Source: Thermoprotei archaeon (GTDB lineage Archaea; Thermoproteota; Thermoprotei; Gearchaeales; WAQG01). From it: 64,000 bases of DNA. Shown here piece after piece: positions 25,572 through 60,610 of the stretch. Within the stretch, counting starts at the first letter, position 1. The number at the start of each line of letters is the position of its first letter. The stretch covers positions 5,115 to 69,114 of the forward strand of contig JBMFIF010000002.1 of the NCBI GenBank assembly GCA_049976445.1, read 5' to 3'. Below the pieces are notes generated by a model, which was given only the letters and a program-made list of their open reading frames with translations, ran no database searches and had not been told where the DNA came from. Position numbers and translations under genes: made by a program.

Positions 25572-25952
25572 TTACATACTAAGACTTAATAATGTTAATT
25601 CATCAATTGTTTGATTAAACAATGCCTCATAAAGACCAGCGACCCTCTCTAAAATAATAATACCTTTAGTTAACACGTTATACCTAAACTTTACTTGCAA
25701 CTCATCTATTGGAACAACATCAAAAGGAATTCTTAAAAACTCTTCTAATCTAGCAGAAAGTAATGCATAATATTTAAACTCCTTATTCATAGAATAAATG
25801 GCAATATCAACATCCCTAAAACTTTTTAACTCCACAAAACTACCAAATATGATTGCTAGAAGCACATCTTTTTCACTCTCAAAAAACTCTCTAATGGAAT
25901 TCATGACAGTTTTCTTATCAATCCTATAATACTTAAATCTTGAAAGCATCAC
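25572..25952 (-). CDS. minimal nucleotidyltransferase (MNT), antitoxin-type
   Basis: GSFVELKSFRDVDIAIY (GS...DxD) pol-beta-type NTase motif; 126 aa; overlaps the HEPN gene by 20 bp. Confidence 0.7.
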   Translation of the reverse strand: MMLSRFKYYRIDKKTVMNSIREFFESEKDVLLAIIFGSFVELKSFRDVDIAIYSMNKEFKYYALLSARLEEFLRIPFDVVPIDELQVKFRYNVLTKGIIILERVAGLYEALFNQTIDELTLLSLSM

Positions 25953-26355
25953 TAATCCTCCTAATAAAATTCATAACATTAACAAAATCACTTCTAATAT
26001 TCTCATATATCTTCTCGTCAATAATAATCCAATATCTATGAACAAGTAAATTTCGCAACTTAAACATGCTCACAAAATCCTTATACTCTTCATCAATCAA
26101 AAGACCCTTATCTCTTAAAATATTTAAGGCATGAATTGAAGATTCAGGTTCAACATTATAAAATCTCCTAACAATGTGAAGAGCTAAAGCACTCAAAGCT
26201 TCAGCAATCACAATGATATGATATCTAACTGCATACCTCTCAGTAAGACTTATTTCTTCAAACGACTTACTAACATAATCACTAATAATATTTATAGATT
26301 CCATAATATCTTTAATAAGTTTCTTAATAAAATCTCTATTAACATCCACTCTCAA
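25933..26355 (-). CDS. HEPN domain protein, toxin-type
   Basis: RNLLVHRY (R-x4-HR HEPN motif); 140 aa; upstream partner of the MNT gene. Confidence 0.65.
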   Translation of the reverse strand: MRVDVNRDFIKKLIKDIMESINIISDYVSKSFEEISLTERYAVRYHIIVIAEALSALALHIVRRFYNVEPESSIHALNILRDKGLLIDEEYKDFVSMFKLRNLLVHRYWIIIDEKIYENIRSDFVNVMNFIRRISDAFKI

Positions 26356-26526
26356 TTCACTCCAAGAAAACTAAGAAACCACAATTTAAAAAGATATTCA
26401 ACAAACTCTCATAAAAACCAAAATAAATAAAAATTAACGGGAATAAGCAAGACGCTCATACAAAAAAGAAGAAAACCAACAGAGCAATACATAAAGATAC
26501 AAGGCGTGTTCTCAAGCATGACTAAT

Positions 26527-26673
26527 GATAAAAGAAGGACAAACTTCACCCTTCAGGGTGGAGTAAATTTAAATACTCAGACACACTATACTCTACAGTA
26601 GCACCCATAAAGGGGTGTAACCCTCAAGACCTCGGGGAACCCTCGCACCTTCAGGGCGGGGAAGAGGTCAGAC
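26527..26673 (+). repeat. GC-rich repeat element, long form (two CTTCAGGGYGG cores 98 bp apart)
   Basis: GATAAAAGAAGGACAAACTTCACCCTTCAGGGTGG ... CCTTCAGGGCGGGGAAGAGGTCAG. Related to 35193-35241 in inverted orientation. Confidence 0.5.
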
Positions 26674-26983
26674 AAAAATTTAACTATCAATAAAATAATT
26701 AACAATTTTTGAAATATAATATTATTTTGTTATCCTGAATATCCTGCTGTGAGTATAAATAAGTATGTGCTGTTTGTATTAGTTATTATGACTAATGTAT
26801 GATTGCTATTGACCTGTTGTGGTCCTACATCGGCATAAAGTGTTATTAATGTTTTTGGTGTTACGGATTGGGAGTCTTGTCGAATATTATAATATCTGTA
26901 CGGTGGAAATATTATATCGTTTGTGGGTATGTTTGGTATATTTTGGGATGCGTTAGAAGTGTAAATTCTAGTTCTCATGATAA

Positions 26984-28093
26984 CTAAATGAGTTCGTTAA
27001 TTTTAGTAGTAAGTCTTTTATATTCATCTTCAATTTTAAGTGCTAGTTCATCTGGGTTTAATTTCATCTTTATTTGTGCTATTAATGCTGTTCCGCCTGC
27101 TCCTACTCCTTCCTTCACATAACCATTTTCGTACGCTTTAAGTCCATAAAATTTTGATTTCGAAAAATTTAGTGTTGTGGCAATTATTGGTATTTTTTCG
27201 ATTTGGCTTACTAAACCTATAATATCGGAACTCCTGTCTTCTATAATCCATTTAGTGGTTCCAATTGCTACCTTGTCTAAATTAATATTCTTATGTTTCA
27301 ATAGTGCTAGCACTGAAGACATTTGAGTTCCACCGGCTAATAATACATGAGAGTTTATTTTTACTATGCCCTCAGTTAATCCTGCCATAGCTATCATCAC
27401 AGGATCACCAACTTTGCTCGCAGCAAGTAAAGGATTTTCTTTAGCTTGCTTGATACTTAGGTTAGCATTTTTTAAGCTCTCCTCAGCTATCCTTATTTTT
27501 AGATCATGCGGGTTATTAGCATCTGCACTACTTATTTTGTATCTAGCGTCATAACCAAGGGCTAAGAGAAAAGTTAGAGTGGTTGTAGTGCCACCTGGTA
27601 TACTTTCACCGATGAGAACAGTATCAGCTAATAATCCCAACTCTTTACCAAAAAGTTTAGCATTTTCATATATTGTGATCGCATCATCATATTTCATGGC
27701 GTTTCCAGTCCTTATATCATTACCGACAACACCACCTACATCTATGAAAGGAACTTTAGGTTTTACATAACAACCAGCGTTTACTACAAAGAAGGGTATG
27801 TTGAGTAGTTGTAATACTGTCCTAGTTATTATTGCGGGTGTTGGAATACCATCAGGCGTTGTTGGTATTACGTTGAAACTGATAACCTTACCATAAAAAA
27901 GATACTCTATATCACCAGTCGGAGTATATAGTGTTGCTTCGGGGTTAGCCCCAGCTATACTAAGACCAGGAATTTTTGATGTTAATGTTGATCCTATTAC
28001 ATAGACAGCTAGCAGGTTAGATTTTTCTATACGTTTAGTGAATTGTTCTCCTTTTTCAGGCATGTACGCATACATAATACTCATACAAACCAC
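26984..28093 (-). CDS. cobT: CobT-like nicotinate-nucleotide--dimethylbenzimidazole phosphoribosyltransferase (archaeal type)
   Basis: IGESIPGGTTT glycine-rich loop and overall archaeal CobT-like layout; 369 aa; cobamide gene neighbourhood. Confidence 0.6.
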   Translation of the reverse strand: MVCMSIMYAYMPEKGEQFTKRIEKSNLLAVYVIGSTLTSKIPGLSIAGANPEATLYTPTGDIEYLFYGKVISFNVIPTTPDGIPTPAIITRTVLQLLNIPFFVVNAGCYVKPKVPFIDVGGVVGNDIRTGNAMKYDDAITIYENAKLFGKELGLLADTVLIGESIPGGTTTTLTFLLALGYDARYKISSADANNPHDLKIRIAEESLKNANLSIKQAKENPLLAASKVGDPVMIAMAGLTEGIVKINSHVLLAGGTQMSSVLALLKHKNINLDKVAIGTTKWIIEDRSSDIIGLVSQIEKIPIIATTLNFSKSKFYGLKAYENGYVKEGVGAGGTALIAQIKMKLNPDELALKIEDEYKRLTTKINELI

Positions 28094-29035
28094 CTAAACA
28101 GGATATGCTCCACATGTTCTACAATATTTTGAATCCGCTGGCACTCCAGCACCACAAAATGAGCATCTTTTTTCATTAGATTTGGGTTTAGGTATATTAC
28201 CGATAATCTCTTTGAACAATTTATAATAATATGCCTGTTCATAATCTCTTAGAATTATTTCTTTGCCCAATTTTTCGAACTCTTCTTTATTAATCATTTT
28301 ACTAATTATCTGTGTGAGGGTTGTGGAACCACTGCCAATTTCGATGGGATCTTTAGTTCTCCATACAATTTCGTCAGGTAGTAATCCTTCTATTGCTTTT
28401 CTGACAATCCATTTTCCATAAATACTGTTTCTTTCTTCATGAACCTTAAATTCAGGAGGAATGCTCAATGCAAAATCCACGAATTCACGATCAATATAAG
28501 GTTGTTCAATCTTTAACCCTAGGCTTTCACCTAGAGGAACAGCTGAAAAGAACCAACGTTCTGATAATTCTTTAATATATTTTTCAAGTTCTTGTGGTTT
28601 CATTTTATACATGTATGAGTAGCCGGCAAACAATTCATCACCACCATCACCTGTTACTATTGATTTGAGACCTAGCTGTTTCGCATAGGATAGTGCTATA
28701 TAAATTGTAATACTATTACGTATTTCCATCGGATCAAAAGTCCTAAGCACGTGAATGACATTTCTAACAGCCTCAAGGGCTTCATCCAATTTGAATATTT
28801 TTATCTTATGATCAAACCCTAAAAATTCTGTTACACGCTTAGAATAATAAAGATCAGGCCCAGGATTTTGTTCAAAAATTGCAGTAATAGCAACCGGTTT
28901 TAGGTTTTTCATTAAAAAGGCTAAAACACTGGTGTCAAGACCCCCAGAAAGAAGTATTGCTTCTCCTTGATGTCTTTTGACTGAAGCTTCCAGCTTATTA
29001 AGAAGTTCTTTTGTTAAAATATTCACTGTAATCAT
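28094..29035 (-). CDS. asparagine-synthase-related PP-loop ATP pyrophosphatase with C-terminal zinc ribbon
   Basis: LSGGLDTS PP-loop (SGGxDS); C-terminal CSFCG...CRTCG; 313 aa; immediately upstream of cobT with a 1-bp gap. Confidence 0.55.
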   Translation of the reverse strand: MITVNILTKELLNKLEASVKRHQGEAILLSGGLDTSVLAFLMKNLKPVAITAIFEQNPGPDLYYSKRVTEFLGFDHKIKIFKLDEALEAVRNVIHVLRTFDPMEIRNSITIYIALSYAKQLGLKSIVTGDGGDELFAGYSYMYKMKPQELEKYIKELSERWFFSAVPLGESLGLKIEQPYIDREFVDFALSIPPEFKVHEERNSIYGKWIVRKAIEGLLPDEIVWRTKDPIEIGSGSTTLTQIISKMINKEEFEKLGKEIILRDYEQAYYYKLFKEIIGNIPKPKSNEKRCSFCGAGVPADSKYCRTCGAYPV

Positions 29036-29037
29036 AT

Positions 29038-29054
29038 GGTTGGATTATCCAATC
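29038..29054. promoter_or_regulatory. operator-like repeat copy 1 (GGTTGGATTATCCAATC)
   Basis: Starts 3 bp from the ATG of the minus-strand PP-loop gene; near-palindromic TGGATTATCCA core. Confidence 0.4.
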
Positions 29055-29124
29055 AAGTATTTAAACTTTTTGTATCCTCATGAAGATTAAACAATATGTC
29101 AGAAACGTTAGCTTTAAATTCTTT

Positions 29125-29139
29125 GGTTGGATTATCCAG
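29125..29139. promoter_or_regulatory. operator-like repeat copy 2 (GGTTGGATTATCCAG)
   Basis: Overlaps the annotated TTG start of the btuF-like gene; 87 bp from copy 1 with TATA-like boxes between. Confidence 0.4.
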
Positions 29140-30383
29140 ACTTGGTGAATAACTTGAGTGATAGGAATACTCGTTACTTATTAAGTCTAATAATTATAAT
29201 AGTGATAGTACTGGGAGTTACTATACCTCTTTATATGGAAATTAATTCTTTAAGAGATGAAATTTCTAGATTACGTAATGATATATCAGCACTTAGTTTA
29301 AGTTCTAAGCAACTTACCTCACAGTTTAATAGTAGTCTCACACAATTAAATGCAGCTTATAAGAGCCTTGAAGATAGGTATAATAAATTATTTCAACAGT
29401 ATTCATCATTGTCTGAAAGTATTAAGTATCCTTTTACAATTACTGATGCTCTTGGAAGAACTGTAACGATAGTTTCAAGGCCAGTTCGAGTTATAAGTAC
29501 GGCACCTAGTGTGACAGAAATGCTTTTTGCTATAAATGCAGAAAAACTTATTGTAGGTGTTGATAAGTATTCAGATTATCCGCCTACAGTAAAAGATTTA
29601 GTTAAAAATAGTACAATTAAGCTGGTTGGTGGTTTTTCGACTGTTGATGTGGAGGCTATTGTAGCACTAAAGCCTGATATTGTATTTATGACACCGGGCG
29701 TGCAAACACCTTTCGTATATAGGTTAGCAGAACTTGGACTAACCGTCGTCGCTTTAAAGGAAGATAGTATATCGGATGTGTTTGATTCGATAATGCTCGT
29801 AGGGAGAATTCTTGATAAGATTGATGGGGCATTAAACGTTGTCGCATCTATGAAGTCTAAAATCACTTATGCGTTCTCAAAGGTTGAGAATTATATTAAA
29901 TCTGTTAATATTACAAGGGTTAAAGTGTATTGGGAAGTATGGCCTGAACCAATATATACCGTTGGTTCACAAAATTTTATAAATGATATAATTACACTAG
30001 CAGGAGGGGTTAATATTTTTGGTGATATAAAATCAGGCTATCCAGTCGTAAGTTCTGAGGAAGTTATAAACAAAACTCCTGATGTTATAATAACAACTGA
30101 TCATGGTGGGGTTTATGGATCGCCACAGGATGTATTAAATATGATCAGGAATAGAACTGGATGGAATGTAATACCAGCTATAAAAAGTAATAGAGTTTAT
30201 GTGTTAACGGGCCAGTTTGGGTCTATGTTTATAAGGCCTGGTCCAAGAGTTGCAGATGCAATTCTTCAACTTGCCGTAATATTATATCCTGAGGCATTTG
30301 GTATGAGTAAAATCATGATACCGAACATAATAAGCACATCGTTTAACGTTACAACATATATTAGTTTGTTAATTGTTTCATAA
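29127..30383 (+). CDS. btuF: ABC transporter substrate-binding protein, BtuF/FhuD-like (cobalamin/siderophore class)
   Basis: Signal-anchor TM, then class III SBP pattern (RVISTAPSVTEMLFAI...GVDKYSDYP); start ambiguous (TTG 29127 or GTG 29145). Confidence 0.65.
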   Translation: MDYPDLVNNLSDRNTRYLLSLIIIIVIVLGVTIPLYMEINSLRDEISRLRNDISALSLSSKQLTSQFNSSLTQLNAAYKSLEDRYNKLFQQYSSLSESIKYPFTITDALGRTVTIVSRPVRVISTAPSVTEMLFAINAEKLIVGVDKYSDYPPTVKDLVKNSTIKLVGGFSTVDVEAIVALKPDIVFMTPGVQTPFVYRLAELGLTVVALKEDSISDVFDSIMLVGRILDKIDGALNVVASMKSKITYAFSKVENYIKSVNITRVKVYWEVWPEPIYTVGSQNFINDIITLAGGVNIFGDIKSGYPVVSSEEVINKTPDVIITTDHGGVYGSPQDVLNMIRNRTGWNVIPAIKSNRVYVLTGQFGSMFIRPGPRVADAILQLAVILYPEAFGMSKIMIPNIISTSFNVTTYISLLIVS

Positions 30384-31410
30384 TACAATGAGCAGTAATT
30401 ATATACAAAGGAGATATTCCCGCCTTATTTTTTCTGTTATTGTTCTAATCATGTTAGTAGGAGTTTTAAGTATATTATCCATTAGTGTTGGTTCTGCGTT
30501 TATAAATCTGCCGGAATCTTTAAAAGCTTTGGTTGATTCTGATAACGTTGATGTATATACAAGAATTATAATATGGGAGATTAGAGTTCCTAGGACATTA
30601 AGCGCTATTTTTATAGGAATGTTGATGGCTTTAGCTGGGCTTTTTATGCAGACTGTTACTCTGAATCCTCTTGCTGATCCTTATTTAACAGGTATGGCTT
30701 CTGGTGCACTGTTAGGTGTTAGTATAACTATTGTGCTTTCACCTTTAATCGTTAGTCCTTATGTTATAGTTATCTCAGCGTTCTTTGGAGCCTTGTGCGC
30801 CATGATATTAACACTTCTAATTGCAAGTAAATTTCGCTTAGATCCAATAGGACTCATACTGGGAGGTGTTGCAGTCTCTATGATTTTTTACTCATTTTCT
30901 GCGATACTTCAGTTTATTGGAGGTGAAAAGATGGTTATGATAATTATATGGAGTCTTGGAAGCTTGAGTACTGCATCATGGTCAAGAACATGGTTTACTG
31001 GCATTACTGCAATAATTCTTATACCCCTTTCTATAATTATGTACAAATCGTTGAATGCTTTATTACTTGGTGATGAGAATGCACAAAGTATTGGTGTAAG
31101 TCCGAAGTTAACACGATCATTTTCCTTGCTAATATCCTCAATTGCCACGGCAATCTCAGTGTCAATGTTTGGTGTGATAGGCTTTGTTGGATTAGTAGCA
31201 CCTCATTTAGCACGTCTCGCATTAAGGAGCGGTGATCATTTAATAGTCATACCAGTCACATGTCTTGTTGGATCCGCTATCATGCTTTTAAGTGATGTGA
31301 TAGCTAGAATAATAGGTTCTCCTGGAGAATTTCCGTTAACTCCTATAATGAGTTTAATTGGTGCTCCGCTACTTATTTATTTAATGAGTAGGAGGTTTAA
31401 AAATGGTTAA
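30373..31410 (+). CDS. btuC: ABC permease BtuC/FecCD family
   Basis: 345 aa, about 9-10 TM helices, FecCD-type conserved glycine-rich segments. Confidence 0.8.
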   Translation: MFHNTMSSNYIQRRYSRLIFSVIVLIMLVGVLSILSISVGSAFINLPESLKALVDSDNVDVYTRIIIWEIRVPRTLSAIFIGMLMALAGLFMQTVTLNPLADPYLTGMASGALLGVSITIVLSPLIVSPYVIVISAFFGALCAMILTLLIASKFRLDPIGLILGGVAVSMIFYSFSAILQFIGGEKMVMIIIWSLGSLSTASWSRTWFTGITAIILIPLSIIMYKSLNALLLGDENAQSIGVSPKLTRSFSLLISSIATAISVSMFGVIGFVGLVAPHLARLALRSGDHLIVIPVTCLVGSAIMLLSDVIARIIGSPGEFPLTPIMSLIGAPLLIYLMSRRFKNG

Positions 31411-32179
31411 ACTAATCATAGATAATCTTTCTGTTAATTATGGTTCAATAAAAGCATTAGAAGATATTAGTATAAAACTTGACAAAGGCATGATGGTATC
31501 AATAATAGGACCTAACGGTTCTGGAAAGACAACACTTCTCAGATCTATAGCAAGAATAGTAAAACCAGTAAAAGGTGTAATCTATATTGATGGAAAAAAT
31601 ACTAACGAACTATCATTAAAAGATCTAGCTCATCATGTATCATACACATCTACATTGAAAGTAAAAGAGGGTTTTGAACTCACAGTGGGCGATATAGTTT
31701 TTATGGGTAGATATCCAAGAACTGGATTTATGATGAGTCATACTGATGAAAGAATTGTGAACGATGTATTAAATAAGTTTCGCATTACTCATTTAATGAA
31801 TAGAAAAATAGATGAGCTTAGCGATGGTGAACGGCAAAAAACCTTTTTAGCAAGAGCCTTAGCTCAAGAATCAGAAATAATACTTGTAGATGAACCATTA
31901 GCGCATCTTGATCTAAAAGCACAACTTGAAGTCTTAAAAATACTTAAAAATGAAGCAAACGATGGAAAGCTTGTAATAATGACCTCACACGAGATAGACT
32001 TACCGATTAAATACAGTGATGTATTAATAGTAATGAAAAAAGGAGAAATATTAGCAGCAGGAAAACCTAATGAAATACTAACAGAAAAAATAATAGAAAA
32101 TGCTTATGGTGTTAAATGTCGTATAATCAAAGATAAAGAATATTCACTTATAGTACTTCTTGACACACTCAGTGATTAG
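31403..32179 (+). CDS. btuD: ABC ATPase BtuD/FepC-like
   Basis: Walker A GPNGSGKTT, signature LSDGERQ, Walker B ILVDEP; 258 aa. Confidence 0.8.
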   Translation: MVKLIIDNLSVNYGSIKALEDISIKLDKGMMVSIIGPNGSGKTTLLRSIARIVKPVKGVIYIDGKNTNELSLKDLAHHVSYTSTLKVKEGFELTVGDIVFMGRYPRTGFMMSHTDERIVNDVLNKFRITHLMNRKIDELSDGERQKTFLARALAQESEIILVDEPLAHLDLKAQLEVLKILKNEANDGKLVIMTSHEIDLPIKYSDVLIVMKKGEILAAGKPNEILTEKIIENAYGVKCRIIKDKEYSLIVLLDTLSD

Positions 32180-32181
32180 TA

Positions 32182-33282
32182 ATGAAGGAATTAAAACAAC
32201 CAGTACACGGTGGTAGAGTATGGGATGCAGCAGAAAAACTCAACATAAACGTTGAAAAGATTATAGATTTTAGTACAAATACAAATCCATTAGGACCTCC
32301 AAAACAATTAATAACAACATTAATAAAAAATATTAACACTGTTGCTTATTATCCAGATCCTGACTATAGAACATTAAGGATGGAATTGGCAAGGTTTTAT
32401 AACATTAATGAAGAGAATATTATAGTTGGTAATGGTGCAACTGAACTTATACATCTATTTGCACAAACATTCATCTCAGAAAATGACAGAGTAATAATAC
32501 CAATACCCACGTTTGAAGAATACCAATATGCATCACAGAAAGTTAGCGCAAGAATTATTTATATAAAGTCAAAAAACAATATGCACATAAACATAGACAA
32601 AATAATATCAAAAATGAACAATACAAAGGTCATATTTGTATGTAATCCAAATAACCCAACAGGAATATTAGAAAAACAAGAAGATATACTCAATCTAATA
32701 AAAGAGGCTAATAAGAGAAACGTACTAGTTTTTCTTGATGAAAGCTTTATGGATCTAGTAGTTACAAAAAAGCCGTACACGTTAATAAGATCAGTAAACA
32801 TGTTTGATAATCTTTTTATAATAAGATCACTAACAAAAATCTTCAGCATACCCGGATTAAGGATAGGTTTTGGTGTATCTTCAAAGTACTTAATAAAAGA
32901 ACTTAATAAACATAAAATACCATGGAATGTCTCAACACTTATTGAAAAAACTATTCCAGAAGCACTAAAATATGCAAGACAATATCTAAAAACATCAAGA
33001 AAAATAATCAAACAAGAAAGAAACTATATGATAAGTGAACTATCGAAAATTGATGGTATTAAAGTAATAAGCGGTGATGCTAATTTTCTCTTCATAGATA
33101 TAAGTGAAACTGGACTCACATCATCAGAATTAGCAGATCAATTAATAAAACATCGTATACTAATACGAGATTGTAGCACTTTTACAGGACTGAACAACTC
33201 GTACATAAGAATAGCAATAAAGAAACACCGAGAAAACATACTACTAATAAATGCTCTGAAAACAATAGTGATAAGAAAATGA
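32182..33282 (+). CDS. cobD: L-threonine-O-3-phosphate decarboxylase CobD-like (class II aminotransferase fold)
   Basis: HisC-like PLP enzyme with Lys in IRSLTKIF; 366 aa; cobamide cluster context. Confidence 0.6.
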   Translation: MKELKQPVHGGRVWDAAEKLNINVEKIIDFSTNTNPLGPPKQLITTLIKNINTVAYYPDPDYRTLRMELARFYNINEENIIVGNGATELIHLFAQTFISENDRVIIPIPTFEEYQYASQKVSARIIYIKSKNNMHINIDKIISKMNNTKVIFVCNPNNPTGILEKQEDILNLIKEANKRNVLVFLDESFMDLVVTKKPYTLIRSVNMFDNLFIIRSLTKIFSIPGLRIGFGVSSKYLIKELNKHKIPWNVSTLIEKTIPEALKYARQYLKTSRKIIKQERNYMISELSKIDGIKVISGDANFLFIDISETGLTSSELADQLIKHRILIRDCSTFTGLNNSYIRIAIKKHRENILLINALKTIVIRK

Positions 33283-34235
33283 ACTCCTTCCACACAAGTA
33301 TAATAATTTTAGTATTAGCAGTACTCATAGATATATTATTTGGAGAACCTCCACTCAAAGTTCATCCAGTAGTTTGGGTTGGTAGATTAATTAAATATTT
33401 GGAACGTTACTGTCATGGAGGAAGCACTCAACTAGAGAAAATTAAAGGTACGATGATGGCTATATCAGTAATTATAATATCCATCACAATAACATACATC
33501 GCTTTAAAAATAGTACAGTCTTATCTCGGTTTATATGGATACATAATAATAGCATCTATAATATTCAAAACAACTTTTTCAATACGATCCATGAAAGATC
33601 ACATAAAACCAATAGCTATCTCGTACGAGAAAAATAATAAAGAAAAGGCCAAAGTATTATTGTCACGAGTCGTAAGAAGAAATCCCTGGCAACTCACTGA
33701 TGAACAAATAATCTCAGCTGCAATAGAGACGACAGCAGAAGGCATAGTAGATGGTATAACATCAGCATTGTTCTATTACAGTATACTTGGAATACCAGGT
33801 GCAATAATGCAACGAGTTATAAACACATTGGACTCAATGGTTGGGTATAAAGATGAATATTATAAGAATGTAGGATGGTTCTCAGCAAAATTAGATACAA
33901 TAATAAACTTTATACCAGCTCGTCTCACAGCAATTACTATAGTACTGGCATCATTAATTTTAAAAAAAGATTATAAATTAAGCTTTAAAATAGCATTAAC
34001 AGACCATAAAAATACTGAAAGTCTTAATGCGGGATGGCCAATGTCAGCAATGGCAGGCGCTCTAAGAATACAACTAGAAAAACCCGGACATTACAAACTT
34101 GGGATTCCAATGCAAAAACTAAAGCCAGAACTCATATACGATGCATTAAACATAATGTATACATCAACAACACTTTTCATAATAACAATAATAATTCCTA
34201 TACTTATTCTCTTTAATATCTACCTATTTTTATAA
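33279..34235 (+). CDS. cbiB: adenosylcobinamide-phosphate synthase CbiB
   Basis: LDSMVGYK...GWFSAKLDTIINFIPARLTA matches the CbiB/CobD-membrane family signature; 318 aa, multi-TM. Confidence 0.7.
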   Translation: MNSFHTSIIILVLAVLIDILFGEPPLKVHPVVWVGRLIKYLERYCHGGSTQLEKIKGTMMAISVIIISITITYIALKIVQSYLGLYGYIIIASIIFKTTFSIRSMKDHIKPIAISYEKNNKEKAKVLLSRVVRRNPWQLTDEQIISAAIETTAEGIVDGITSALFYYSILGIPGAIMQRVINTLDSMVGYKDEYYKNVGWFSAKLDTIINFIPARLTAITIVLASLILKKDYKLSFKIALTDHKNTESLNAGWPMSAMAGALRIQLEKPGHYKLGIPMQKLKPELIYDALNIMYTSTTLFIITIIIPILILFNIYLFL

Positions 34236-34342
34236 TTAAAAAACTTACCAGAAAGCACGTGTTCACAAAATGAAATGATCTGATTTTTCGTTATCATTTA
34301 GTTATTTGCGTTAATTTTAAAATATAAGTTTTATAAATTATT

Positions 34343-35158
34343 TTGATAAAAATGTGGTATTTAGATACTCTAGACCGTAAACCTTTAGGTAGAACAAGAG
34401 AAACTGTACCTGCGATCGGTATTGGAACATGGGCTGTAAGGGACTTTAATAAAGCCGAAACAGCTTTAGTTAAAGCAGTAGAGCTTGGGCTTAATATGAT
34501 AGATACTGCAGAAATGTACCACACAGAAGAACTTGTAGGTAAAGTTATCAAAAAGGTTGGTAAAGAGAACGTTTTCATAACAACTAAACTTTTACCTGAA
34601 CACTTTTCAGATGTTGACAATGCATTAAATGCAGCTAAATTAAGCCTTTCAAGATTAGGAATTAATATTGTCGATTTAATTCTAATACACTGGCCTAGAA
34701 CCTTCACACCCATCGAAAAACAAGTCAGAATACTAGAGGCAATAGCCAACGCAGGGTATTCCAGATACATAGGTGTGAGTAATTTTAATGTTAACCAGCT
34801 TTCAAAAGCAACACAATCAACCAAAAAACATGAAATAGTAGTAAACCAAGTAAAATATAGCGTGTTAGATCGAACAATAGAGGATAACTTATTATTATAT
34901 GCTATAGAGCATGGTATAACAATACAAGCATACACACCATTAGAGAAAGGTAAGGTTTCAAACAATAAAATTTTATCTGAAATAGGTAAAAAATACAATA
35001 AGACACCAACACAAGTAGCATTAAATTATCTTATCTCTAACCCCATGGTGACTGCAATACCAAAAACAGAAAAAATCGAAAGAGTATTAGAATTTAAAGG
35101 ATCATTAGGATGGAGACTTATGAAAGAGGACATAGAATTCATTAAGAGCAAAATTTAA
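34343..35158 (+). CDS. aldo/keto reductase
   Basis: AKR motifs (IDTAEMYHTEELVG; LIHWP); 271 aa. The overlapping minus ORF 34294-34998 is a shadow frame. Confidence 0.8.
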   Translation: MIKMWYLDTLDRKPLGRTRETVPAIGIGTWAVRDFNKAETALVKAVELGLNMIDTAEMYHTEELVGKVIKKVGKENVFITTKLLPEHFSDVDNALNAAKLSLSRLGINIVDLILIHWPRTFTPIEKQVRILEAIANAGYSRYIGVSNFNVNQLSKATQSTKKHEIVVNQVKYSVLDRTIEDNLLLYAIEHGITIQAYTPLEKGKVSNNKILSEIGKKYNKTPTQVALNYLISNPMVTAIPKTEKIERVLEFKGSLGWRLMKEDIEFIKSKI

Positions 35159-35192
35159 CCCTAAAAACCTTTAGCTTATCCAGCTATCCTTT

Positions 35193-35241
35193 CTCTGACC
35201 TCTTCCCCACCCTGAAGGGCGAAGTTTGTCCTTCTTTTATC
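35193..35241 (-). repeat. GC-rich repeat element, short form (inverted relative to 26527-26673)
   Basis: Reverse complement GATAAAAGAAGGACAAACTTCGCCCTTCAGGGTGGGGAAGAGGTCAGAG equals the long form with the segment between its two CTTCAGGGYGG cores deleted. Confidence 0.5.
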
Positions 35242-35298
35242 AACGAAGAGTGAAGCTTAAATAAATTTTTCAAATAGAAGAATCGTAAGTGAACAAAA

Positions 35299-37768: not shown

Positions 37769-37802
37769 TTAAATCAAAGATAAATTTGACATATTATTTA
37801 TT

Positions 37803-37903
37803 TTATACTCAAGAAGATACTAATGAAATTAAAGAAACATTACTAAAAATTAATACCATGGTCAATGAACCGAAAAATAGCTCGATGATACTTAAAACAA
37901 TAT
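37803..37903 (+). repeat. direct repeat copy A (about 100 bp), containing a truncated 5' fragment of an ABC permease gene
   Basis: About 80% identical to 40488-40590. Encodes MVNEPKNSSMILKTIF*, a decayed copy of the N-terminus MIVNELANSSMILKTIEE of the permease at 40543. Confidence 0.65.
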
Positions 37904-39206: not shown

Positions 39207-39452
39207 GTGAAGAATAAAGAATATAATGACCTATCTCCTAAAGATCGGAATATAGCTATGGTTTTTCAAAATTATGCTCTCTATCCTCATATGAGTGTTT
39301 ATGATAATATTGCATTTCCTTTAAAAATGAAAAATTTTCTAAACTTGAAATTGATAAGAAGGTTAAGTATGTTGCTGAACTATTCAGGGCGGAGAGCTCT
39401 CCGACGAGTTTCGTGCTCATGGAGGTCAACGGCCTACACCCCAGTCAGTTCT
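39207..39452 (+). pseudogene. MalK-type ABC ATPase remnant (lacks Walker A, frameshifted after KMK)
   Basis: [29 protein letters not shown] is the Q-loop region of sugar ABC ATPases. No upstream Walker A. A shifted frame continues [18 protein letters not shown] and then diverges. Confidence 0.6.
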
Positions 39453-40487: not shown

Positions 40488-40590
40488 TTATACTCAGGAA
40501 GATATTAATAAAATTAAAGATAACTCACTATCAAAAATTGGTATGATAGTTAATGAGCTGGCGAATAGTTCGATGATACTTAAAACAATA
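40488..40590 (+). repeat. direct repeat copy B (about 100 bp), forming the promoter and 5' end of the ABC permease gene
   Basis: See copy A; spacing between copies is about 2.7 kb. Confidence 0.65.
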
Positions 40591-55842: not shown

Positions 55843-55870
55843 TTTCTGAAATTCACATACTTTCTGTTGG

Positions 55871-55960
55871 TAGTTGAATCATTTTAGGATAAATTTTATA
55901 CTGTTTTAAGAAATGATGGGTATGAATTGGTTCATACTAATCTGGTTCCACTACCGTTCT
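55871..55960 (+). repeat. about 90-bp direct repeat, copy 1
   Basis: GGTAGTTGAATCATTTTAGGATAAATTTTATACT...GTATGAATTGGTTCATAC...; about 85% identical to 60521-60610. Confidence 0.6.
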
Positions 55961-60341: not shown

Positions 60342-60520
60342 AGACAGAAGATTTTCACTCCTAAAATGCTCACCAATCTGTTGTCACTCCTTTAAACCTT
60401 CATTATAGAAAACTGTTCAAAAATATTACTGATAGAAATTTAATGCTTTTTTACATAATTTTTGTCCCTTAATCTTCATAAAGTGATGATGAATCTTTCA
60501 TCGTTGAGCTTATTTATTGG

Positions 60521-60610
60521 GTAGTCGAATCATTTTAGGATAAATTTTATACTATCTTAAGAAAAGATGAGTATGGATTGGTTCATACTAACCTGACTCC
60601 ACCACATATT
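60521..60610 (+). repeat. about 90-bp direct repeat, copy 2
   Basis: See copy 1. The internal hairpin GTATGGATTGGTTCATAC differs from copy 1 by A to G, which keeps pairing as a G-U wobble. Confidence 0.6.

Follow-up and report, generated by a model that had tools for sequence, protein, structure and literature searches.

Why do inverted copies of a short GC-rich element bracket a block of cobamide uptake and salvage genes in a Thermoprotei archaeon? The two copies lie in a 64,000-nt stretch of contig JBMFIF010000002.1 (assembly GCA_049976445.1, positions 5,115 to 69,114), which as a whole is called the window here. An earlier interpretation of these letters, the sequence-only reading, had offered three ideas: a small non-coding RNA (ncRNA) family, a recombination or inversion substrate, or the remnants of an integration event that delivered the transporter half of the pathway. 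Our analysis supports it in part. Both copies are very probably non-autonomous palindrome-associated transposable elements (PATEs), akin to miniature inverted-repeat transposable elements, that derive from an IS200/IS605 insertion sequence of the IS1341/TnpB type and landed independently of one another.

An inverted pair of short elements

The longest inverted repeat found in a repeat search of the 64 kb joins positions 26526-26561 to 35207-35242 (36 nt, 97% complementary), and a second arm of the same pair joins 26648-26676 to 35190-35218 (29 nt, 93% complementary), which bears out the two GC-rich copies in opposite orientation first described. The sequence CTTCAGGGYGG occurs exactly at three sites of the window, at 26551 and 26649 in the long copy, where two cores 98 bp apart had correctly been seen, and at 35217-35207 on the minus strand. 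When up to one mismatch was allowed, there were four matches in the window (the fourth, with one mismatch, at 39382), as compared with a mean of 0.40 in 100 dinucleotide-preserving shuffles, none of which (0/100) reached four. The pair is real, and chance is excluded. Its members are:

26530 to 26671, plus strand: long copy, a probable PATE of 142 nt, delimited by comparison with the empty site of the short copy and with full-length elements
35195 to 35238, minus strand: short copy, a probable terminal-only PATE of 44 nt, the stretch absent from three relatives (L001, L002 and L003), with a 1-nt register ambiguity (A)

The sequence-only reading had thus recognized the shared copies, with outer limits (26527-26673 and 35193-35241) that are now redrawn. 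Between the outer ends, AAAAGAAGG... and ...GAGGTCAG, there is no inverted-repeat relationship; subterminal palindromes lie near both ends of the long copy, and the short copy has one fused hairpin. At 142 nt and 44 nt the copies are too small for a transposase gene, and both are intergenic and antisense to the neighbouring genes.

The short copy consists of the 5' part of the left end and the 3' part of the right end, joined at a single hairpin. If the 98 nt that separate the two cores are taken out of the long copy, 142 - 98 = 44 nt are left, the length of the short copy, and the resulting 44-mer differs from it at 2 positions, or at only 1 if the crossover is placed 3' of the T in GGGT. The proposal that the short copy is what remains after a deletion between the cores therefore holds to within 1-2 differences, and it fits the repeat-mediated core deletion known for PATEs (PMC3119063). 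Such a terminal-only form would arise when near-identical end hairpins recombine or slip, with loss of the intervening DNA.

A clean empty site in near-identical genomes

A look-up of the BtuD protein led to three contigs related to the window, from two metagenome-assembled genomes (MAGs) at NCBI and one JGI metagenome (L001, L002 and L003); the exact CbiZ protein had no record in public assemblies. Each contig differs from the window by 14-17 mismatches over 20.7 kb (99.93% identity). All three lack exactly the 44 nt of the short copy, with flanks that are 100% identical: on the element strand the filled site reads CGTTGAT-(44 nt)-AGAAAGG and the empty site CGTTGAT-AGAAAGG, with no duplication and no scar. 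A clean TTGAT/AGAAAGG joint of this kind is a hallmark of IS200/IS605 peel-and-paste transposition; in ISDra2, TTGAT is both the target and the transposon-adjacent motif (TAM), and the target is not duplicated (PMC8612924). Two features of the short copy follow:

35205 to 35224, minus strand: single hairpin CTTCGCCC-TTCA-GGGTGGGG, an 8-bp stem when folded as RNA (-13.3 kcal/mol)
35239 to 35243, minus strand: target TTGAT of the short element, kept in the empty site of the relatives

The shared 5' (T)GAT, once counted as part of the element, is the insertion target, since it is still there in the empty site. Left-end junctions of this class in the collected loci read NTGAT in 19/21 cases, of which TTGAT in 8, and CGAT in 2/21. 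As DNA, the short-copy hairpin is weakened by G-T pairs and is not the minimum-energy fold.

The long copy is found in the window and in all three relatives. It carries two G-to-A changes in L002, and a 3-nt deletion together with changes in the TATA region in L003; with these (window positions 26567-26640), the long copy holds an outsized share of the rare differences among the four near-identical genomes.

Such elements would move as single-stranded DNA by peel-and-paste, with a Y1 transposase TnpA acting in trans and insertion 3' of (T)TGAT without duplication. The mobilizing TnpA was presumably encoded elsewhere, and the 44-nt form would have arrived at its site in its present length, or else as a longer element whose core was lost afterwards.

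Both copies carry the ends of TnpB-bearing elements

The 3' end shared by the two copies, a UUCA-loop hairpin followed by GAGGTCAG, is the right end seen just after tnpB in many thermophilic archaea. A scan for the exact pattern TTCAGGGYGGGGARGAGGTCAG, with one genome per species, returned at least 117 stretches, all archaeal among those listed and mostly from thermophilic lineages (Caldisphaera, Desulfurococcales, Ignisphaera, Thermococci, Archaeoglobales, Nitrososphaeria, Marsarchaeota, Acidianus and others), with multiple copies in several genomes. For 91 of the listed matches, 1.3 kb or more of upstream sequence was available; in 15 of them the motif closely follows the end of a TnpB of at least 300 aa, and 69 have no such TnpB. 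Six upstream open reading frames (ORFs) were checked, and all matched Pfam OrfB_IS605 (E 1e-18 to 1e-32) and Cas12f1-like_TNB; an IS200-type tnpA lies directly upstream in three loci (L078, L029 and L100).

About one third of the listed right-end matches (loci L004-L120) are single-hairpin elements of 40-45 nt, most of which read TTAC/AACTGAAAGCCTCGCCC-TTCA-GGGCGGGGAGGAGGTCAG. The right-end motif is also present in two contigs classed as viral in IMG/VR (L125, 4369-4390; L126, 1379-1400).

The long copy belongs to a scaffold class, class A, in which it aligns over 76 nt with the 3' ends of tnpB-bearing elements from Caldisphaera (L028, L074, L093), Marsarchaeota (L072) and a Nitrososphaeria MAG (L102). 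In the class-A tnpB elements, AGTAGCACCCGTAAAGGGGTGTAA codes for the TnpB C-terminus (...VAPVKGV-stop or ...VAPVKGCNP-stop). Nine terminal tnpB codons are retained in the long copy, where the relic reads ...TVAPIKGCNPQ, as compared with ...GVAPVKGCNP-stop in L072 and ...RVAPVKGV-stop in L028.

The left end is equally recognizable. In full-length Caldisphaera elements it reads TGAT/AAAGAAACAACAAAC-CTCGCCCC-TTCT-AGGGGCGG-AATAAAATTTTTTAAATC..., followed by tnpB, and in the window TGAT/AAAAGAAGGACAAAC-TTCACCC-TTCA-GGGTGG-AGTAAATTTAAATAC...; the layout TGAT/AAAAGAAGGACAAAC-hairpin-AGTAAATTTAAATA parallels the left ends of L028, L093 and L074 as well as those of other archaeal PATEs. The order of parts is identical in the window and in Caldisphaera: target, an A-rich leader ending in ACAAAC, hairpin, and a box resembling a TFB recognition element and TATA box (BRE/TATA). 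This matching layout argues that in the long copy a left end and its promoter have been fused to the final ~75 nt of an element. Similarly built elements include ones of ~165 nt in the Nitrososphaeria MAG (L009, L073, L090) and ones of ~200 nt and ~330 nt in Caldisphaera. The long copy would thus be a core-deleted element, made of a left end with hairpin and BRE/TATA, the nine final codons of tnpB and a right end that corresponds to the 3' ~75 nt of a TnpB guide-RNA (omegaRNA, HgcC-like) scaffold. Its parts are:

26526 to 26529, plus strand: target or TAM, TGAT, read directly 5' of the long element
26543 to 26564, plus strand: left-end subterminal hairpin ACTTCACCC-TTCA-GGGTGGAGT, from DNA and RNA folding
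26562 to 26575, plus strand: predicted BRE/TATA-like promoter AGTAAA-TTTAAATA, in a position that parallels left ends elsewhere
26598 to 26624, plus strand: relic of the last tnpB codons (VAPIKGCNP) and first hairpin of the kept scaffold, from the translation LYSTVAPIKGCNPQD
26641 to 26661, plus strand: right-end subterminal hairpin CCTCGC(A)CC-TTCA-GGGCGGGG with a UUCA tetraloop, from folding and a motif identical in more than 117 archaeal loci
26662 to 26671, plus strand: right-end tail AAGAGGTCAG, where the similarity between the copies stops and the element ends after TCAG
26672 to 26687, plus strand: flank, the would-be guide segment if the long copy were transcribed as a guide-like RNA, following the TnpB model

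The left-end hairpin has a 9-bp stem as DNA (-6.0 kcal/mol, z -2.1) and a more negative folding energy as RNA (-13.9 kcal/mol, z -3.6). The 5-bp stem first drawn for the hairpin is too short, as the stems have 9 bp (left end of the long copy) and 8 bp (short copy). The difference noted between the copies, A-T in one and G-T in the other, stands. Just 5' of the left hairpin, ACAA (26539-26542) is a candidate guide tetranucleotide for cleavage at TGAT, the precedent being IS608, in which TTAC pairs with AAAG (PMC3201880). Among the listed matches there is a second class of short elements, which has exactly TTAC together with AAAG. On the 3' side, the element extends 10 nt beyond the foot of the right hairpin.

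Left-end searches touched further loci. In one metagenome contig (L121, ERZ1669248 NODE-6210, ~1006-1140), a near-identical left end, TGAT/AAAAGAAGGACAAACTTCACCCTTCAGGG, has its hairpin interrupted by an insert of ~100 nt with 17-bp terminal inverted repeats (GAGACTGTCCACATAAG...CTTATGTGGACAGTCTC), an arrangement reminiscent of Haloquadratum, where PATE palindromes are targeted by small repeats (PMC3119063). The pattern had 0 matches in the viral contigs of IMG/VR. In Caldisphaera sp. F8S.bin.6 (L010, L011, L041, L080, L094, L099, L107, L114 and others), many PATEs keep a conserved segment of the tnpB 5' leader, CATGAGGAGCGGGAGCCGATTTCTCCCGCAATATCGGCTTGG, between the left and right ends. This segment includes a GC hairpin and perhaps a pseudoknot, and the fact that it has been kept points to a function in the RNA or in transposition.

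An HgcC-like right end and the possibility of a host RNA

No Rfam family matched anywhere in the window at the gathering threshold. With permissive settings, the long copy matched HgcC (RF00062) at 26558-26684 with 25.4 bits (E 8e-4), and the short copy with 14.5 bits. Most of this signal comes from the 3' hairpin and the ...GAGGUCAG tail: in the long copy, the UUCA-type hairpin followed by GAGGAGGUCAG aligns to positions 88-118 of the model with high posterior probability. The alignment of the 5' part of the long copy with the first HgcC hairpin was rejected as spurious, as it consists of non-canonical pairs and covers the left-end promoter region. A tRNA/tmRNA scan of the window was empty, so that the elements are neither fragments of a tRNA nor an integration (att) site.

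The 3' ends of tnpB match the same model, with 31.8 bits for L072 and 40-46 bits for L096, L014, L078 and L084; these four also match the haloarchaeal sot0042, which L072 does not. In ten tnpB-bearing or related loci there was no HgcC match at the Rfam gathering threshold, the matches being sub-threshold ones reported by an E-value setting. Since tnpB 3' ends match HgcC, the HgcC-like sequence here is best read as a TnpB guide-RNA scaffold. This agrees with earlier work, in which a UUCA-tetraloop hairpin was found to be common to the 3' RNAs of IS1341-type tnpB, HgcC and fused-end PATEs (Gomes-Filho et al., PMC4615843), and with the present view of tnpB-overlapping RNAs as TnpB guide RNAs (PMC12558985). 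A small ncRNA family was accordingly the nearest of the three initial ideas, on the strength of the weak HgcC match, with the amendment that HgcC-type RNA is the 3' region of IS200/IS605 tnpB.

The predicted 75-nt RNA of the long copy folds to the class consensus, with a covarying first hairpin (two pairs), an invariant GACCUC/GAGGUC closing stem and the UUCA hairpin; the fold of the long copy as RNA has an energy of -31.1 kcal/mol (z -2.9). In the first scaffold hairpin, AU and UA replace one another in 5/21 sequences and CG is replaced by UA in 1. A TTAAAT(A/C) box is found at the same place after the left hairpin, upstream of tnpB, in full-length Caldisphaera elements and in other archaeal PATEs. 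Archaeal promoters keep a usual spacing between BRE/TATA and the start of transcription, from which the TATA box at 26568-26575 would predict a start near 26597, the scaffold junction. Transcription of the long copy from the left-end promoter would then yield a truncated guide-like RNA. The long copy keeps the ~75-nt 3' portion of the scaffold, and no tnpB adjoins it. In the TnpB model, the sequence that follows the right end on its 3' side serves as the guide (PMC8612924), and PATEs often carry guide RNAs, for which use by TnpB in trans has been proposed (PMC10055086).

These properties also lend themselves to another explanation, in which the copies are free-standing HgcC-family small-RNA genes with a host function, for example as regulators, whose transposon ancestry is irrelevant today. 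The long copy matches HgcC and folds well as RNA, and its scaffold is preceded at ~25 nt by a good BRE/TATA; the antisense orientation of both copies relative to their neighbours is what one would expect of independent genes; and in Halobacterium a PATE-derived RNA is expressed and its overexpression alters growth (PMC4615843). However, the short copy is dispensable, being absent from three near-identical relatives, and the changes within the 142 nt of the long copy (2 single-nucleotide changes in L002; a 3-nt deletion and more in L003) argue against strong constraint. The scores also stay under the Rfam threshold, and a host function is compatible with a transposon origin and does not exclude it. 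We therefore regard a host RNA of this kind as improbable.

The transposon origin has points to answer as well. The two HgcC scores are under the gathering score of 50 for RF00062, and support from RNA structure is thin, with 2 covarying pairs and invariant remaining stems. No similarity to tnpA or tnpB was found in the 64-kb window or in the contigs of the relatives. The left-end pattern, when searched in metagenomes, gave only two true relatives (L121 and L122) among 4 matches; the others are L123, which looks like chance, and L124, which has TnpA/TnpB similarity nearby and may be a distant IS605 left end. The window is an outgroup to the three relatives, and the 44-nt change fits insertion or precise excision. 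Lastly, the IS608 model calls for a right-end guide tetranucleotide that is missing from the short form, and mobility of this form by itself is doubtful on mechanistic grounds.

The cobamide genes between the copies

The genes enclosed by the pair encode CobT (TIGR00303), an Asn-synthase-like PP-loop protein, a BtuF-like protein, FecCD, an ABC ATPase, CobD (TIGR01140), CbiB (TIGR00380) and an aldo-keto reductase; CbiZ, CobS and a CobY-like nucleotidyltransferase are encoded outside it. Protein-family matches agree with the names originally given to the bracketed genes. In L001-L003 the cobamide block has an identical gene order and orientation, and it is accompanied by the long copy only.

It is very unlikely that the two copies delimit an 8.6-kb segment, whether one integrated in a single piece or one invertible by recombination between them. 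The geometry, inverted copies flanking a functionally coherent gene block, is all that speaks for such a segment, whereas the relatives have the identical block with one copy of the two, the shared sequence amounts to just 36 + 29 nt, and cbiZ-cobS-cobY of the same pathway lie outside the pair. Furthermore, inverted copies cannot mobilize the DNA between them, because single-strand IS200/IS605 transposition requires the left and right ends on one strand (PMC3201880). The sequence-only reading had suggested comparing the orientation of the block in related strains; with the same order and orientation in all three 99.93%-identical relatives, none of which has the short copy, both the inversion substrate and the delivery of the transporter half by integration fall away.

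A cis-regulatory RNA of the cobamide genes (riboswitch, attenuator or terminator) is scarcely credible: both copies are intergenic beside these genes, the short copy lying 57 nt upstream of the cbiZ start codon and just upstream of the TATA-like TTAAATAA, but searches at the gathering threshold, and with E values up to 10, gave neither a cobalamin nor any other riboswitch, both copies run antisense to the genes beside them, the same elements stand beside unrelated genes in many genomes, and the short copy is missing from relatives with the same cbiZ upstream region. The bracketing is coincidental, as the block is intact with one element, pathway genes (cbiZ-cobS-cobY) lie outside, the relatives show no link between the elements and the cobamide genes, and elsewhere the elements are found near unrelated genes. 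A role for the elements in assembling or regulating the cobamide genes, whether by riboswitch, inversion or delivery of the block, is not supported.

Could the 44-nt form move by itself?

A bolder proposal is that the 44-nt single-hairpin element is itself an active transposable unit, among the smallest known, and not a dead deletion product; we consider this possible, though rather unlikely. TnpA would use the one hairpin as both left and right end, cutting the element out and pasting it 3' of TTGAT. Consistent with such mobility, the element was exactly gained or lost between genomes that differ by 0.07%. The hairpin variant CGCCC is common to the short copy and L122, an unrelated metagenome contig, whereas the neighbouring long copy has CACCC, which argues that the short copy is not a direct product of that long copy. 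In addition, the terminal-only build recurs in ~38/115 of the listed right-end matches (an approximate hand count), each by a TTAC or TGAT target; examples are L046 and L049 (Caldisphaera), L088 and L119 (Marsarchaeota), L122 (metagenome) and many TTAC-class copies. In Haloquadratum, 52-bp terminal-only PATEs arose via deletion between near-identical palindromes, and some insertions are strain-specific (Dyall-Smith et al. 2011, PMC3119063); these authors raised mobility of the 52-bp forms as a possibility and left it undecided.

Relation to known elements

As in the PATEs of Haloquadratum walsbyi (PMC3119063), there are no terminal inverted repeats and there are subterminal palindromes at both ends; the target is 4-5 nt and is not duplicated; the ends are homologous to IS1341/TnpB elements; and core deletion produces a single-palindrome element of ~50 nt that can be strain-specific. 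Terminal-only PATEs are therefore already known from Haloquadratum, and what we describe is the same thing in another archaeal lineage. Unlike H. walsbyi, the host here is not a haloarchaeon, its DNA is AT-rich (34% GC) and the family is found mostly in archaea of thermophilic lineages; the terminal-only form measures 44 nt as compared with 52 bp, and the end sequences and the target (TGAT here) differ.

With HgcC (RF00062), sot0042 (RF02656) and the TnpB omegaRNA (reRNA), the elements share the 3' UUCA-loop hairpin, the GAGGUCAG tail and the right-end position, and their full-length relatives overlap the tnpB 3' end. They differ from HgcC and omegaRNA in that the window copies are under the Rfam threshold, the long copy keeping ~75 nt of scaffold with no adjoining tnpB and the short copy the terminal hairpin and tail only.

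Insertion 3' of TTGAT without duplication is like that of ISDra2 of Deinococcus radiodurans (PMC8612924), and a right cleavage site 10 nt 3' of the hairpin foot is like that of IS608 of Helicobacter pylori (PMC3201880), whose TTAC/AAAG pairing TGAT/ACAA would parallel. The left cleavage site, in contrast, is 13 nt from the hairpin foot here and 19 nt in IS608, and unlike both bacterial elements, to which their end sequences are unrelated, the copies encode no transposase or TnpB. Bacterial REP sequences and REPINs, mobilized by RAYT (TnpA-like) proteins, are likewise very short, intergenic single-hairpin repeats from IS200/IS605-type ends; however, REPINs are inverted doublets with a domesticated single-copy RAYT, whereas the ends described here match genuine TnpB elements, and nothing resembling a RAYT gene was seen.

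Neighbouring features of the window

A toxin-antitoxin pair, HepT-like RNase and MNT nucleotidyltransferase, adjoins the long element (25572-26355, minus strand). Between this element and cobT lies an 82-aa ORF (26730-26978, minus strand) with no Pfam or NCBIfam match, which is an annotated gene in L001 and L002 and not in L003. Two further intergenic repeats are present. One, of 86 nt (55869-55954 and 60520-60605, 88% identical, with sharp-edged similarity), has inverted termini GGTAGT...ACTACC and an internal palindrome GTATGAA-TTGG-TTCATAC, and could represent either a small RNA or one more miniature mobile element. The other, of ~100 nt (~37800-37902 and ~40490-40590, ~77% identity), has one copy downstream of the cobY-like gene and one ahead of an ABC permease operon; as both copies precede plus-strand genes, the segment may be a promoter or leader that these have in common.

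Implications

The AT-rich archaeon studied here carries unannotated miniatures of IS200/IS605 elements. These repeats do not bound, deliver or regulate its cobamide salvage block, and an attractive but mistaken account can thus be set aside. More generally, HgcC-type GC-rich islands that look like ncRNAs in AT-rich archaeal genomes should be read first as right ends of TnpB elements. With its promoter and truncated scaffold, the long copy may be conjectured to be a candidate gene for a trans-acting guide RNA. As a natural marker, the strain-specific 44-nt copy records recent activity of the element in this lineage, and it offers a small test case for the mobility of terminal-only PATEs.

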